A stretch of 61,455 nt of DNA, counting the filler. It is 2 parts of 2 records of this genome, joined end to end, with 100 filler letters (N's around TTAATTAATTAA, not from the genome) between each part and the next. Parts side by side here need not be neighbours in the genome. Positions count along the whole stretch, not along the records: positions 30,308 to 61,455 come from SRR16203515_2333; 1 more part is not named here. One strand, given 5' to 3'. The position numbers and the translations under genes are program-made. Shown here piece after piece: positions 56,755 to 61,455 of this stretch. Below the pieces are notes generated by a model. That model did not search any database. It was not told the origin of the DNA and was given only the letters and a program-made list of their open reading frames with translations. Numbering within the stretch: position 1 is the first letter of the stretch; the number at the start of each line of letters is the position of its first letter.

Positions 56755-56904
56755 TAAATACTTCTTTTTGGATGATAATAAGGCCAATGGCTGATAGGCT
56801 CAGTGGCAATAACTAAGGGGGATACTCGCTTATCCCTCGGATATTATATAAGTATCGGCCTATCTAGTCGTTACTTTACCGATTTATGCAATTTAGAAGC
56901 GGTT

Positions 56905-58278
56905 ATGGCAAAGAATAAAACAGCGTTTGTATGTAATGAATGTGGTCAAGATTTTCCTCGTTGGCAGGGGCAGTGCAGTGCGTGCCAAGAGTGGAACACC
57001 ATTAGTGAGTTAAAAATCTCATTAGCTAAGCCAACTAGAGCTACTGTAGCAGGTTATGCCGGTGCTGTGGGCGGTGGTTCAAAAAAGCTAAATGAAATAG
57101 AAGAGTTTGAAGCCGAGAAAATGCTAACCGGCATTGGCGAGCTTGACCGCGTACTTTGCGGTGGGCTTACAACAGGCTCGGTGAATATTATTTCTGGCGA
57201 TCCTGGTGCGGGTAAAACCACTATTCTGTCGGATTTAGTATCGCGTATGTCGCAGCTAATGCCATCGTTATACTGTACTGCCGAAGAATCATTATCACAG
57301 TTTAAAAATAGGGTTAATCGTCTTAAGTTAGATTGCAATGAAGACAATTTATACCTTATGGCTGAAACCAGTGTTGAAGCGATTATTGCAGAGCTTGAAG
57401 ATAAGCAGATTAAGTTTGCTGTTATCGACTCAATTCAAGCTGTTGTTACCGACTTAGCTAATGGTAGCCCCGGATCACCATCGCAAGTTAAGGGTAGTGC
57501 ACAAGCATTAACCCAGTATTGTAAGCAAAATAATGTGACCATGTTTTTAGTGGCTCATGTGAACAAGAATAATGAAACCGCGGGCCCGCAGACGTTAATC
57601 CATATTGTGGATTGCCTAACTCATATCGAGTGTAACGACGGTCAAGTGCGCACATTAAGAGCTAATAAGAACCGTTTTGGTGATGTCGATACCGTGGGTA
57701 TTTTTAAGATGACAGAGCGGGGAATGATAAGTGTTGATAACCCGAGCGAAATCTTCCTGTCTGGCTCAACCACTGAGTCACCTGGCGCTGCTATTACTTG
57801 TATCCGTAAAGGTAATCGTAATCTGCTGCTGGAGATCCAATGTTTAACCACTGAAACTGAAGCTGAATTTCCTCAGCGAGTGTGCGTGGGCTTGAACATG
57901 AACCGGATAAAAATGCTAACCGGAATTTTGCGTAAGCATACAAAAACCAAGATTTTCCATGATACCTACTTTAACTTGGTTGGCGGTCTTAAAATTGATG
58001 AGTCTGAAACCTGTATCGATTTAGCCTTGGTAACGGCATTATTGAGTAGTTTGAATGATTTTGTTGTGCCAAGAACCACTTGTATTATGGGGGAGTTGAG
58101 CCTTAATGGCGATGTGCGTCCTATTGACAGCGGCGTACCTCGAGTTCGAGAGGCGATCCAGCATGGTTTTACCGAGATCTTCATTCCTTTTCGCAACTAC
58201 CATAAGTCAATGGAAGGCGCTGGAGCAAAAATTATCCCGGTGAAGACGATTCACGAGTTGCTTGAATTGATTAATTAA
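56905..58278 (+). CDS. radA: DNA repair protein RadA/Sms (ATG 56905)
   Basis: C4 zinc finger CNECG..WQGQCSAC, Walker A GDPGAGKT, IDSIQ, KNRFG, GELSLNG. Confidence 0.95.
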   Translation: MAKNKTAFVCNECGQDFPRWQGQCSACQEWNTISELKISLAKPTRATVAGYAGAVGGGSKKLNEIEEFEAEKMLTGIGELDRVLCGGLTTGSVNIISGDPGAGKTTILSDLVSRMSQLMPSLYCTAEESLSQFKNRVNRLKLDCNEDNLYLMAETSVEAIIAELEDKQIKFAVIDSIQAVVTDLANGSPGSPSQVKGSAQALTQYCKQNNVTMFLVAHVNKNNETAGPQTLIHIVDCLTHIECNDGQVRTLRANKNRFGDVDTVGIFKMTERGMISVDNPSEIFLSGSTTESPGAAITCIRKGNRNLLLEIQCLTTETEAEFPQRVCVGLNMNRIKMLTGILRKHTKTKIFHDTYFNLVGGLKIDESETCIDLALVTALLSSLNDFVVPRTTCIMGELSLNGDVRPIDSGVPRVREAIQHGFTEIFIPFRNYHKSMEGAGAKIIPVKTIHELLELIN

Positions 58279-58363: not shown

Positions 58364-58723
58364 TTAATTCAAACCAAAAAGCCTTTCTAATTCTCTATCT
58401 AATAGCGACGCATCACCCAAGTTTAGCTCGAGTAATCGGCGCAGATGACTAATACTTTCGACATCAATATGTAAACAGGCTAAACCGAGTTGCTGGTTCT
58501 TTTGGTGCACAATACGGACTTGCATTTGCACGCAAATGTCAGAATCGTGGATCATAAACTCCAGAGTTAGCGGCTGGCAAGCGAGTGTTAATTCCTGAGG
58601 CTGCTTGATAAGCGCGCCGTTGAGGCTGATATCTAACAGCTGAGTTTGCCATTGGTTTTCGCCACTAATCAGTTTTGCATCAGAGGTTAGATTTAACCTT
58701 GAAAACTGTCGTCTCTCATCCAT
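58364..58723 (-). CDS. Single-domain PilZ protein
   Basis: ERRQFSR and DISLNGA motifs, SHLRRLLELNLGD. Confidence 0.9.
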   Translation of the reverse strand: MDERRQFSRLNLTSDAKLISGENQWQTQLLDISLNGALIKQPQELTLACQPLTLEFMIHDSDICVQMQVRIVHQKNQQLGLACLHIDVESISHLRRLLELNLGDASLLDRELERLFGLN

Positions 58724-59858: not shown

Positions 59859-61091
59859 GTGTCATTTTCATCACTTGCTTTAAGTGACAAACTTCTAAGT
59901 GTACTAACCGAAAAAGGTTATCAACAGCCAACGGCAATTCAAGCTGAGGCGATCCCTGCGATATTGTCAGGATACGATCTTATGGCAAGTGCGCAGACAG
60001 GAACCGGCAAAACAGCGGCATTTACCTTGCCTTTGCTGCAACTGTTACTTGATAAACCAGTTAACGACACAGCATTGAAACGAGCCTCTGTGTTGGTACT
60101 CACCCCAACTCGTGAACTTGCAGTGCAAGTTAATAGCAATGTTAGCCAATACGCGGTTAATACCGGCATTAGTAGCTTAGTGATTTATGGTGGCGTCAGT
60201 ATTGATGCTCAAGTCACTAAATTGGCCGCGGGTGTTGATGTTATTGTCGCAACACCGGGGCGGTTACTCGATCATGTACGCCGTGGTTCACTAAATCTTT
60301 CTAGCATTGAACACTTAGTGTTTGATGAAGCCGACCGTATGCTAGATATGGGTTTTATGGATGAGATCAGCGCGATTTTAAAGCAGTTGCCAGCAAAGCG
60401 TCAGACCTTGCTATTTTCTGCGACCTTTAGCTCAGCGATTTATGATTTAAGTAAAAAACTACTACAAAAGCCCATAAAAATCGAAGTCGATAAAGCTAAT
60501 AGCGCAGCCCACAACGTAGAGCAAATTGTTTATGCGGTTGATAGCGACCGTAAAACAGCATTAATTAGTCATTTGATTAGCAAGAATGATTGGCATCAAG
60601 TATTGATTTTTAGCCGTAAAAAGCAAACGGCCGATCAAATCTGTCAAAAAATGACAGCAGCCGGCATAGAAACAAAAGCGTTTCATGGGGATTTAGGCCA
60701 AGGCGCACGTGAGCAAGTGCTCAATGATTTTAAGCAAGGTAAGATCAAAGCATTAGTGGCAACCGATGTTGCTGCTCGCGGCCTTGATATTGTTGAGCTA
60801 AAAGTCGTGGTTAACTATGAAATCCCATTTGTGGCTGAAGATTACGTGCACCGCATCGGTCGCACAGGCCGCGCGGGCAACACAGGTAAGGCTATCACTC
60901 TTTATAGTGAAGATGATGCCTTGTTGCTTGAAGAAGTTGAAACAGTACTCGATAAGCGATTACCGCAGCAATGGTTACCTGGATTTGAGCCGGATCTTAC
61001 TAAGATGGAAGAACCAAGCCGTAAAAATAGTAAAGCAGCACAAAGGCAAAGAGCTAAAAAACGCGCTTTAGGTGGTAAGAAGCGCCGTTAA
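59859..61091 (+). CDS. DEAD-box RNA helicase, RhlE-like (GTG 59859)
   Basis: AQTGTGKT, PTRELA, TPGRL, DEAD, SAT, ARGLD, HRIGRTGRAG; AAGGA SD. Confidence 0.93.
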   Translation: MSFSSLALSDKLLSVLTEKGYQQPTAIQAEAIPAILSGYDLMASAQTGTGKTAAFTLPLLQLLLDKPVNDTALKRASVLVLTPTRELAVQVNSNVSQYAVNTGISSLVIYGGVSIDAQVTKLAAGVDVIVATPGRLLDHVRRGSLNLSSIEHLVFDEADRMLDMGFMDEISAILKQLPAKRQTLLFSATFSSAIYDLSKKLLQKPIKIEVDKANSAAHNVEQIVYAVDSDRKTALISHLISKNDWHQVLIFSRKKQTADQICQKMTAAGIETKAFHGDLGQGAREQVLNDFKQGKIKALVATDVAARGLDIVELKVVVNYEIPFVAEDYVHRIGRTGRAGNTGKAITLYSEDDALLLEEVETVLDKRLPQQWLPGFEPDLTKMEEPSRKNSKAAQRQRAKKRALGGKKRR

Positions 61092-61159
61092 TAACATATC
61101 GGCATTAAAGCCATTTGGCCCTTGTAGTGGTTATTTTGCCTGCATAGTGGTTGATATTG

Positions 61160-61191
61160 ATGCCCAGCGTTTACTCGTGTGGGCATTTTTT
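61160..61191 (+). terminator. Terminator after the helicase
   Basis: atgccca...tgggcat followed by a T run. Confidence 0.65.
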
Positions 61192-61265
61192 ATTGATACG
61201 AATCAAAAAAGCTTTTAGTTGGCTATTTCCCAACAGCTGATTGCTGTACACTCCGCGCCAACAAA

Positions 61266-61410
61266 GGCTGTGTTGGTAAGAGTAAATTTTACCAGGCATA
61301 TTGCTCGCAGGTCACTGCCGCTTTTATAAGCGTAAGTGGATCTCTCACCCAATCTATTGAATTGGGGCTCTACCTGCCATAGCCGAGTAACCGACTTACC
61401 TCAGTTGGTT
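61266..61410 (+). ncRNA. Candidate structured cis-regulatory RNA leader (unclassified)
   Basis: Six compatible helices plus a possible pseudoknot, between a TACACT-CCGCGCC -10/discriminator and the ATG at 61446. Confidence 0.55.
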
Positions 61411-61445
61411 TTACCCAATTTAAGAGATCAAAAGGTATAACAATT

Positions 61446-61455
61446 ATGAAGTCTG
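61446..61455 (+). CDS. Probable start of next gene (MKS...), truncated by window end
   Basis: ATG preceded by AAAGGT SD-like sequence at 61431-61436. Confidence 0.5.

Follow-up and report, generated by a model that had tools for sequence, protein, structure and literature searches.

The window, that is the whole stretch of 61,455 nucleotides analysed here, closes with a DEAD-box helicase gene, a leader region and the first bases of a permease gene. The segment from about 61260 to 61448 is best explained as the 5' leader of the mRNA of a GhxQ-type permease, a cis-acting, riboswitch-like RNA that is found in Shewanella only. A terminator-like hairpin belonging to the helicase gene would set the helicase transcript apart from the leader. 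Its loop is longer than 8 nt and it was not flagged by a simple terminator scan. The open reading frames 5' of the helicase gene include one (56803–58278, plus strand, 491 residues) that resembles RadA/Sms-type repair proteins, and the minus strand at 58364–58723 appears to encode a small PilZ-like protein of 119 residues; both were judged from the translation by eye. The preliminary description of the window had placed an unclassified multi-helix leader before the gene at 61446. All strings and coordinates that it listed (TACACT, CCGCGCC, helices P1–P5, the last hairpin and the ATG) are present as given, and the leader is indeed conserved in Shewanella, carries its own promoter-like −10 hexamer and is without a match in Rfam 15. 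The features of the region are compiled in Table 1.

Table 1. Features of the permease leader and its surroundings (positions in the window).
Feature	Position	Strand	Remarks
Terminator-like hairpin of the DEAD-box helicase gene (putative)	61160–61195	+	ATGCCCA / TGGGCAT, then T-run; from sequence inspection
−10 hexamer TACACT (61247–52) and G+C-rich discriminator CCGCGCC (61253–59)	61247–61259	+	
P1 5' strand GGCUGUG	61266–61272	+	Partner 61378–84
Variable P1–P3 insert	61273–61306	+	Here P2 (61274–79/61289–94) and short P2b (61295–98/61302–05)
P3 5' strand GCAGGU	61307–61312	+	Partner 61372–77
P4 hairpin, CAC(U)...(A)GUG base, top variable	61313–61338	+	Abuts P3, stacked on it; here 61313–16/61335–38, inner CGCUU/AAGCG
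J4/5 junction strand GAUCUCUCA	61339–61347	+	61339–45 (GAUCUCU) is the 5' strand of the proposed pseudoknot
P5 hairpin CCCAAU...AUUGGG	61348–61366	+	Strands 61348–53/61361–66
J5/3 junction strand GCUCU	61367–61371	+	0–1 extra nt in other species
Contiguous 3' strands of P3 (ACCUGC) and P1 (CAUAGCC)	61372–61384	+	P1 and P3 can stack coaxially
Linker with optional hairpin P6	61385–61422	+	P6 61389–96/61403–10
AGAGAUC, 3' strand of the proposed pseudoknot	61423–61429	+	Ends 16–22 nt 5' of AUG across species
Shine-Dalgarno AAGGU (61432–36) and ATG (61446–48) of the GhxQ-like permease	61432–61448	+	

The window ends at 61455, 10 bases into the permease gene. The full gene was read in a genome (G001) that is 99% identical over 556 bases. 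It encodes 452 amino acids with a Xan_ur_permease domain (Pfam PF00860, E 8.3e-72), and the protein is 74% identical (323 of 438 residues) to the RefSeq entry for E. coli GhxQ, annotated as a guanine/hypoxanthine transporter. This annotation of the E. coli protein has an experimental basis. On the DNA level, the gene matches ghxQ in all 5426 of 5426 E. coli genomes with about 66% identity. An NCBIfam search with the permease returned no family. Full-length similarity to a named member, together with the Pfam permease domain, places the protein in the GhxQ/GhxP group (NCS2, AzgA-like). By sequence, the downstream gene is a GhxQ-type permease, with predicted transport of guanine and hypoxanthine. 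The next genes in G001 are located on the opposite strand, so the permease gene is most likely monocistronic. In E. coli, ghxQ follows guaD, whereas the Shewanella permease gene of G001 stands alone behind its own leader.

Across the leaders, the hexamer at the position of TACACT reads TAnnnT (TACACT, TAAACT, TAGAAT, TATTAT and TATCAT). Its first, second and sixth bases (T1, A2 and T6) are fixed, a pattern of variation that fits a −10 element. The following 7–8 bases, the discriminator, are G+C-rich throughout and vary in both sequence and length; then comes CCAACAA. The leader is probably transcribed from the TACACT promoter, and the transcript would start at about 61259–61261. No convincing −35 element was seen, and a simple scan found no plus-strand promoter passing the −35/−10 rule. 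A G+C-rich discriminator in an E. coli promoter points to regulation by ppGpp/DksA. By analogy, it may be speculated that the leader promoter is ppGpp/DksA-sensitive as well.

Folding of 61255–61455 with RNAfold gives P1, P2, a small P2b, P3, P4, P5 and the last hairpin. The energy of this fold is −55.6 kcal/mol compared with −46.1 ± 4.5 kcal/mol for shuffled sequences (z = −2.12), and 5 of 200 shuffles fold equally well. The single-sequence fold is thus modestly unusual. The comparative evidence for the leader structure is much stronger.

A BLAST search with 61195–61455 against 121 genomes of the same genus gave matches in 72, and 70 loci were fetched. The most distant matches keep three blocks, namely the −10 hexamer with the P1 5' strand, the region from the 3' end of P4 to the P1 3' strand and the region preceding the start codon. 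Three loci in which the start codon was not placed (L034, L035 and L037) were dropped and one duplicate was removed, resulting in 67 distinct upstream sequences. Alignment A1 comprises 59 of these 67 sequences in 366 columns and was calculated with MAFFT from sequence only. It leaves out the near-duplicates L003, L004, L009, L040, L042 and L046, the locus L033, whose insert exceeds a 270-nt cut, and the degenerate locus L070. L033–L035 and L037 (genomes G071, G070, G014 and G079) have extra repeated residues at the permease N-terminus and a P1–P3 insert of up to ~190 nt.

In A1, all cells of P1 and P3 (100%) are paired. Both-sided changes occur at five of the seven P1 pairs, which comprise the types GC, GU, AU, UA, CG and UG, and at two of the six P3 pairs. 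In P3, GC is replaced by AU at one pair in 15 of 59 sequences, and GU is present at another pair in 8 of 59. The base of P4 is paired in 92% of cells, with both-sided changes at one of four pairs; its CAC/GUG pairs are kept in 59, 59 and 45 plus 14 (as GU) of the 59 sequences. P5 is paired in 84% of cells, a value that includes inner pairs partly misaligned by MAFFT, and shows both-sided changes at three of six pairs. Its CCC/GGG base is kept, while the loop and the inner pairs vary with compensation. RNAalifold, run on the alignment with no structure supplied, finds P1, P3, three pairs of P4 and three of P5, i.e. 20 pairs, eight of which have compensatory changes. The covariation score of the whole structure is 0.170 compared with 0.105 ± 0.004 in shuffled alignments (0 of 500 reach 0.170); all sequences of A1 are related members of one genus, so the shuffle controls overstate significance and independence. 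When the 3' partners are slid by 1–3 columns, the score is 0.047–0.085.

Homologues and covariation in Shewanella had been named in the preliminary description as a check. Homologues were found, and compensatory changes maintain P1, P3, P5 and the P4 base; P2 and the last hairpin turned out to be variable or optional. A pseudoknot between GCUC (61303–06) and GAGU (61385–88) had also been proposed. This pairing is present in only 50% of cells in A1 and both strands vary freely, and it was rejected. Accordingly, the continuous 3' strand that was thought to pair with three separate 5' segments pairs with two, those of P3 and P1. Two points had escaped the preliminary description, the GhxQ-like identity of the downstream gene and a second, longer complementarity (GAUCUCU with AGAGAUC) that is described below.

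Lengths of the individual elements were counted in the 78 of 82 distinct leaders (A1 plus A2) that are parsed by a strict pattern. The insert between P1 and P3 measures 28–188 nt and forms exactly two hairpins in 70 of the 78 leaders, with unrelated sequences. The insert of P4 has 8–55 nt, P5 has 13–22 nt and the linker following P1 has 10–48 nt. Hairpin P6 within this linker is replaced by a hairpin-free stretch of 10–12 nt in 21 of the 78 leaders, and one more leader has a 22-nt linker with a weak hairpin only. The effective length of the linker is roughly constant. The three strands of the inner junction of P3, P4 and P5 have 0, 9 (GAUCUCUCA) and 5–6 nt (GCUCU plus 0–1). J5/3 is nearly invariant as GCUCU in A1 and reads AUCCUCA in the divergent leader L171. 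Since the 3' strands of P3 and P1 directly adjoin each other, as do the 5' strands of P3 and P4, P1, P3 and P4 can form one stack. In the proposed architecture, this coaxial P1–P3–P4 stack would carry the two-hairpin insert (P2, P2b) on one side and the three-way junction of P3, P4 and P5 on the other. The combination of variable helices, swapped or resized hairpin tops and invariant junction strands is typical of ligand-binding RNAs.

A covariance model built from A1 (R1, 208 positions, 23 pairs) was used to determine the distribution of the leader. It gave one match per genome in five of five genomes and in 77 of 121 Shewanella genomes. In 151 genomes sampled across the order there were two matches, both in Shewanella, and there was none in 144 genomes representing 68 further genera of this order under strict filters with few candidates scored per genome. 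A scan of genome contigs with an anchor made of J5/3 and the 3' strands of P3 and P1 returned 72 stretches. R1 confirms 47 of these, 46 of them in records with Shewanella in the title; the other 25 are chance matches in unrelated taxa that R1 does not match. The remaining confirmed locus (L116) lies on a 671-nt contig (NZ_BMJI01000060.1) of a Tersicoccus solisilvae assembly and comprises the leader and the start of the permease gene. Its score of 112.2 bits equals that of a Shewanella carassii locus, and hence it is probably a contaminant contig in an actinobacterial assembly. Of 15 matches to the exact core pattern among 401 genomes of the order, 11 are real, all of them from Shewanella. The four matches outside Shewanella have no CCC...GGG hairpin and were taken as chance.

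Among metagenomes, 25 loci with relatives of the permease were considered. R1 was applied to 22 of them, three loci with only the C-terminal part of the permease being omitted. All 13 loci with an 87–91% identical permease have an R1 match, and the eight loci with a permease of at most 71% identity gave none. Twelve of the metagenomic leaders are complete, L201 is cut at its 5' end and L195 is a 29-nt remnant at a contig edge. The 13 copies examined, the L195 remnant excepted, all contain AGAGATC.

The leader and the permease gene occur together. In all 70 fetched loci, the permease N-terminus is encoded immediately 3' of the leader, and a permease follows the leader in every confirmed locus that reaches that far. 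Five genomes that lack the motif contain only a permease paralogue with 37–38% identity. Thus, the leader comes and goes with this permease gene. The helicase behaves differently. The preliminary description had considered a link to the helicase gene and a leader that senses helicase activity, but just 11 of the 47 confirmed loci have a helicase homologue directly 5' of the leader; it is 1–6 kb away in eight and absent from the fetched locus in 28, in part perhaps as an edge effect, since the leader is not at the centre of these loci. The link was rejected on the basis of this synteny. Moreover, the helicase gene has its own terminator-like hairpin.

Searches against known RNA families, a further check proposed earlier, gave no family match for the leader. 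With cmscan against Rfam 15 at E values up to 10, nothing was found in the leader of the window. Twelve diverse homologues yielded three unrelated weak matches only (E 2.4–4.8), two of which are outside the leader. The third, to Giardia U2 snRNA on the minus strand of L041 (E 3.2), covers the start codon and reaches no further into the leader than its final bases. The leader is therefore outside the families of Rfam 15, including RF00167 (purine), the ykkC subtypes, ZTP and NMT1. In open-access main text, the motif was not found either; a published Shewanella transcription start map or table of candidate motifs could still list it. A conserved structured RNA that is absent from Rfam 15 is well supported, with a narrow range of one genus and one gene.

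Only two long runs are invariant in A1. The first is GUGGAUCUCUCAC (61336–48; as DNA GTGGATCTCTCAC) in the junction of P3, P4 and P5, and the second is AGAGAUC in the tail. AGAGAUC is identical in 59 of 59 sequences of A1 and in 45 of the 47 confirmed contig loci; the other two are cut by the end of the locus. Of four low-scoring members of the genus that were read directly, G027, G019 and G072 keep both blocks, with a longer linker in G072. GAUCUCU of the junction and AGAGAUC of the tail are perfect Watson-Crick complements over 7 nt, and their duplex is calculated at −7.9 kcal/mol. When the 61-nt tail was subjected to dinucleotide shuffling, 270 of 20000 shuffles contained 7 nt complementary to the 13-nt block. 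This pairing crosses P1 and P3 and would therefore be either a true pseudoknot or an alternative to P1/P3. Both possibilities, a true pseudoknot and a pairing that is mutually exclusive with these helices, agree equally well with the complementarity. Both strands are invariant in all sequences except one, and this invariance speaks neither for nor against the pairing.

The exception is L171 (genome G054). Its blocks read GUGGUUCUCUAACCC and AAGAGAACA, so that GUUCUCU is opposed to AGAGAAC. At the second pair, U-A takes the place of A-U, and the remaining six pairs are as in the other leaders. This flip is compensatory and is the sole change in either block among the leaders that retain both strands. 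The matched duplexes have energies of −7.9 and −7.5 kcal/mol, compared with −4.7 kcal/mol for the mixed duplexes of canonical and L171 strands. Covariation support for the junction-tail pseudoknot thus comes from a single evolutionary event in one genome. A search for relatives of G054 gave no additional genomes, and the metagenome loci have only the canonical AGAGAUC.

Both GATC sites are lost in L171, which bears on the question whether the conserved blocks work at the DNA level, as transcription-factor operators or as an inverted pair of Dam sites. GATC is present in each of the two invariant runs, which together make up an inverted repeat (GATCTCT ... AGAGATC). However, their spacing varies by tens of bases across species on account of the linker and P5 (10–48 and 13–22 nt), and the blocks lie well 3' of the −10 element. 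Furthermore, RNA pairing is indicated by compensation in P1 and P3 and by the change in L171, which destroys GATC and preserves pairing. A role as DNA sites is highly improbable.

Two further loci deviate from the common pattern. In L070 (G033:C90), everything 5' of the P3 3' strand is deleted, i.e. the promoter, the P1 5' strand, P2–P5 and GAUCUCU. The stop codon of the helicase gene is found ~45 nt 5' of the remnant CCUGCCACAGCC, the tail reads AGAGACC instead of AGAGAUC, and G033 has no R1 match. The altered tail fits a relaxed constraint after loss of the partner, as a single case. In L060 (G017:C40), the unrelated CACCCGAUGUAUCGUUUACCUGCC takes the place of the P5 3' strand and of the GGGGCUC junction, and the tail is UCAGAGAUC; this locus may be a decaying copy.

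Across species, AGAGAUC ends 3–9 nt 5' of the GG of the Shine-Dalgarno sequence, which itself is outside every conserved pairing. The proposed pseudoknot would need to act by steric hindrance about 5 nt 5' of the Shine-Dalgarno sequence, less directly than in most translational riboswitches. An alternative is a structural element that senses no metabolite and instead sets mRNA stability, Rho access or basal translation, or responds to temperature or Mg2+, by means of the P1–P3–P4 stack and the tail pairing. In favour of this alternative, many Shewanella species are cold-adapted, the ligand of the leader is so far putative, and control may be exerted largely at the promoter, as suggested by its G+C-rich discriminator. 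Known RNA thermometers pair the Shine-Dalgarno sequence or the AUG in a simple hairpin. In the leader, by contrast, no conserved helix covers the Shine-Dalgarno sequence or the AUG (61432–48), unlike in ROSE or fourU thermometers, so that the thermosensor considered in the preliminary description is unlikely. The 13 plus 7 nucleotides that are invariant genus-wide in junction and tail are hard to explain by stability alone, and no terminator-like site was found. A simple scan for an intrinsic-terminator attenuator found 0 terminator-like sites in 60900–61455; P6 is optional and, where present, is followed by at most 2–4 U. Overall, an element of this kind is quite unlikely.

The invariant single strands could equally be the binding site of a protein or a small RNA. 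The factor acting in trans could be an RNA-binding protein, either purine-responsive or global, or else an sRNA that depends on Hfq and pairs with the A-rich UUAAGAGAUCAAAAGG beside the Shine-Dalgarno sequence; the internal GAUCUCU would then serve as a competing or mimicking site. This explanation accounts for the location of the invariant elements in single strands, one of which adjoins the ribosome-binding site, for the absence of a conserved helix that sequesters the Shine-Dalgarno sequence and for the invariance of both pseudoknot strands in all but one genome, which exceeds the need of pairing alone. On the other hand, a multi-helix design with covariation of P1, P3 and P5 and invariant junctions goes beyond the needs of a simple site for a protein or sRNA. 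One motif per genome implies a regulon of one, and the A-U to U-A flip of L171 is a prediction of intramolecular pairing. A factor acting in trans is therefore regarded as unlikely, less so than a purely structural role.

The RNA is a conserved structured 5' leader with conserved junction nucleotides and is associated with a single gene function. With its covarying helices, its exchangeable hairpin tops, its invariant junction strands and its strict linkage to one transporter gene, it has the properties of a riboswitch, and the complementarity of junction and tail would plausibly supply an expression platform. The inference of an orphan riboswitch made in the preliminary description thus stays the best reading. 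Whether the leader is a riboswitch for a ligand of any kind is judged an evenly balanced question. The same even chance is given to the fuller proposal, a new genus-restricted candidate for a translational riboswitch, probably purine-sensing, in which the junction-to-tail pseudoknot gates the entry of the ribosome. Somewhat short of even is the most specific version, in which a new riboswitch class born in Shewanella senses guanine, hypoxanthine or a signal of purine status (PRPP, ppGpp) by a fold unrelated to the classical purine riboswitch and controls GhxQ translation by a junction-tail pseudoknot that stops short of the Shine-Dalgarno sequence. A purine as the ligand is, taken by itself, slightly more tentative still. 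Given a riboswitch, control in the OFF direction is mildly favoured.

In such a riboswitch, the junction would bind a small molecule, most likely guanine, hypoxanthine or another purine metabolite close to them. The bound ligand would fix J4/5 so that it pairs with AGAGAUC. The resulting pseudoknot would draw the ribosome-binding region against the folded RNA and reduce loading of the 30S subunit, which would amount to feedback repression of purine uptake. Without ligand, the tail would be free and the permease would be translated.

Purine riboswitches control genes of hypoxanthine/guanine permeases in Firmicutes. The purine riboswitch RF00167 and its specificity variants share with the Shewanella leader the position in a 5' leader, the three-way junction and the location before a gene of a purine nucleobase permease. 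Since layout and gene are shared, the same ligand class and the same physiological logic are expected. However, the Shewanella leader has no match to RF00167 at E up to 10, and its junction strands (0, 9 and 5–6 nt) are unrelated. The lengths of P4 and P5 vary, which makes a fixed loop-loop contact unlikely. Additionally, the Shewanella leader has an outer junction (P1, P2 and P2b) and the pairing of the tail with the junction.

Other known systems resemble the leader in part. The NMT1 motif is a small motif of two stems and an internal loop. This former orphan with purine-linked genes is reported to be a xanthine or uric acid riboswitch, which shows that purine metabolites are sensed by more than one RNA fold (PMC7373994). 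The NMT1 motif is contained in Rfam, yet it does not match the Shewanella leader. The proposed pairing of tail and core is the point of likeness to a further group of riboswitches. In preQ1-II, SAM-II/V, guanidine-III and NAD+-II riboswitches, a tail beside the ribosome-binding site pairs into the ligand core, and the Shine-Dalgarno sequence usually is part of the pseudoknot. In contrast, the paired 7-mer of Shewanella ends before the Shine-Dalgarno GG, by the 3–9 nt given above. The Shewanella aptamer is also far larger (~120–280 nt, 5–6 helices) and has no sequence or Rfam similarity to these classes. In E. coli, purine transporter genes are repressed by PurR, a DNA-binding protein acting on operators. 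The common logic would be feedback on guanine/hypoxanthine uptake by purine availability. No palindrome resembling a PurR box was seen by eye in the promoter region of the window.

If ligand binding were confirmed, the leader would be a further, structurally independent way to sense purines. It would also be a clean case of a rare riboswitch class limited to a single genus and a single gene; such classes are predicted to be numerous but hard to find. Natural variants provide built-in tests, namely the double change in G054, the deletion of the aptamer in G033 and the clades that lack P6. In Shewanella, a workhorse of bioelectrochemistry, the leader could find use as a compact control part that responds to purines. 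Should no ligand bind, it would still be a well-defined conserved leader, and its invariant junction and tail would need a partner.

Two local features of the window and its relatives concern the variable parts of the leader. The P6 loop UACCU (61397–61401) is complementary to AGGUA of the Shine-Dalgarno region (61433–61437) in the window and its closest relatives only. A conserved anti-Shine-Dalgarno function of this loop was rejected, as the alignment, inspected by eye, shows no conservation in sister clades; a clade-specific anti-Shine-Dalgarno is possible. The P2 loop (61273–61294 in the window) reads UAAGAGUAAA in the clade of the window and is similar to UAAGAGAUCAAA of the tail (61420–61433). 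Other clades do not conserve this likeness, which may be a coincidence or a clade-specific decoy.
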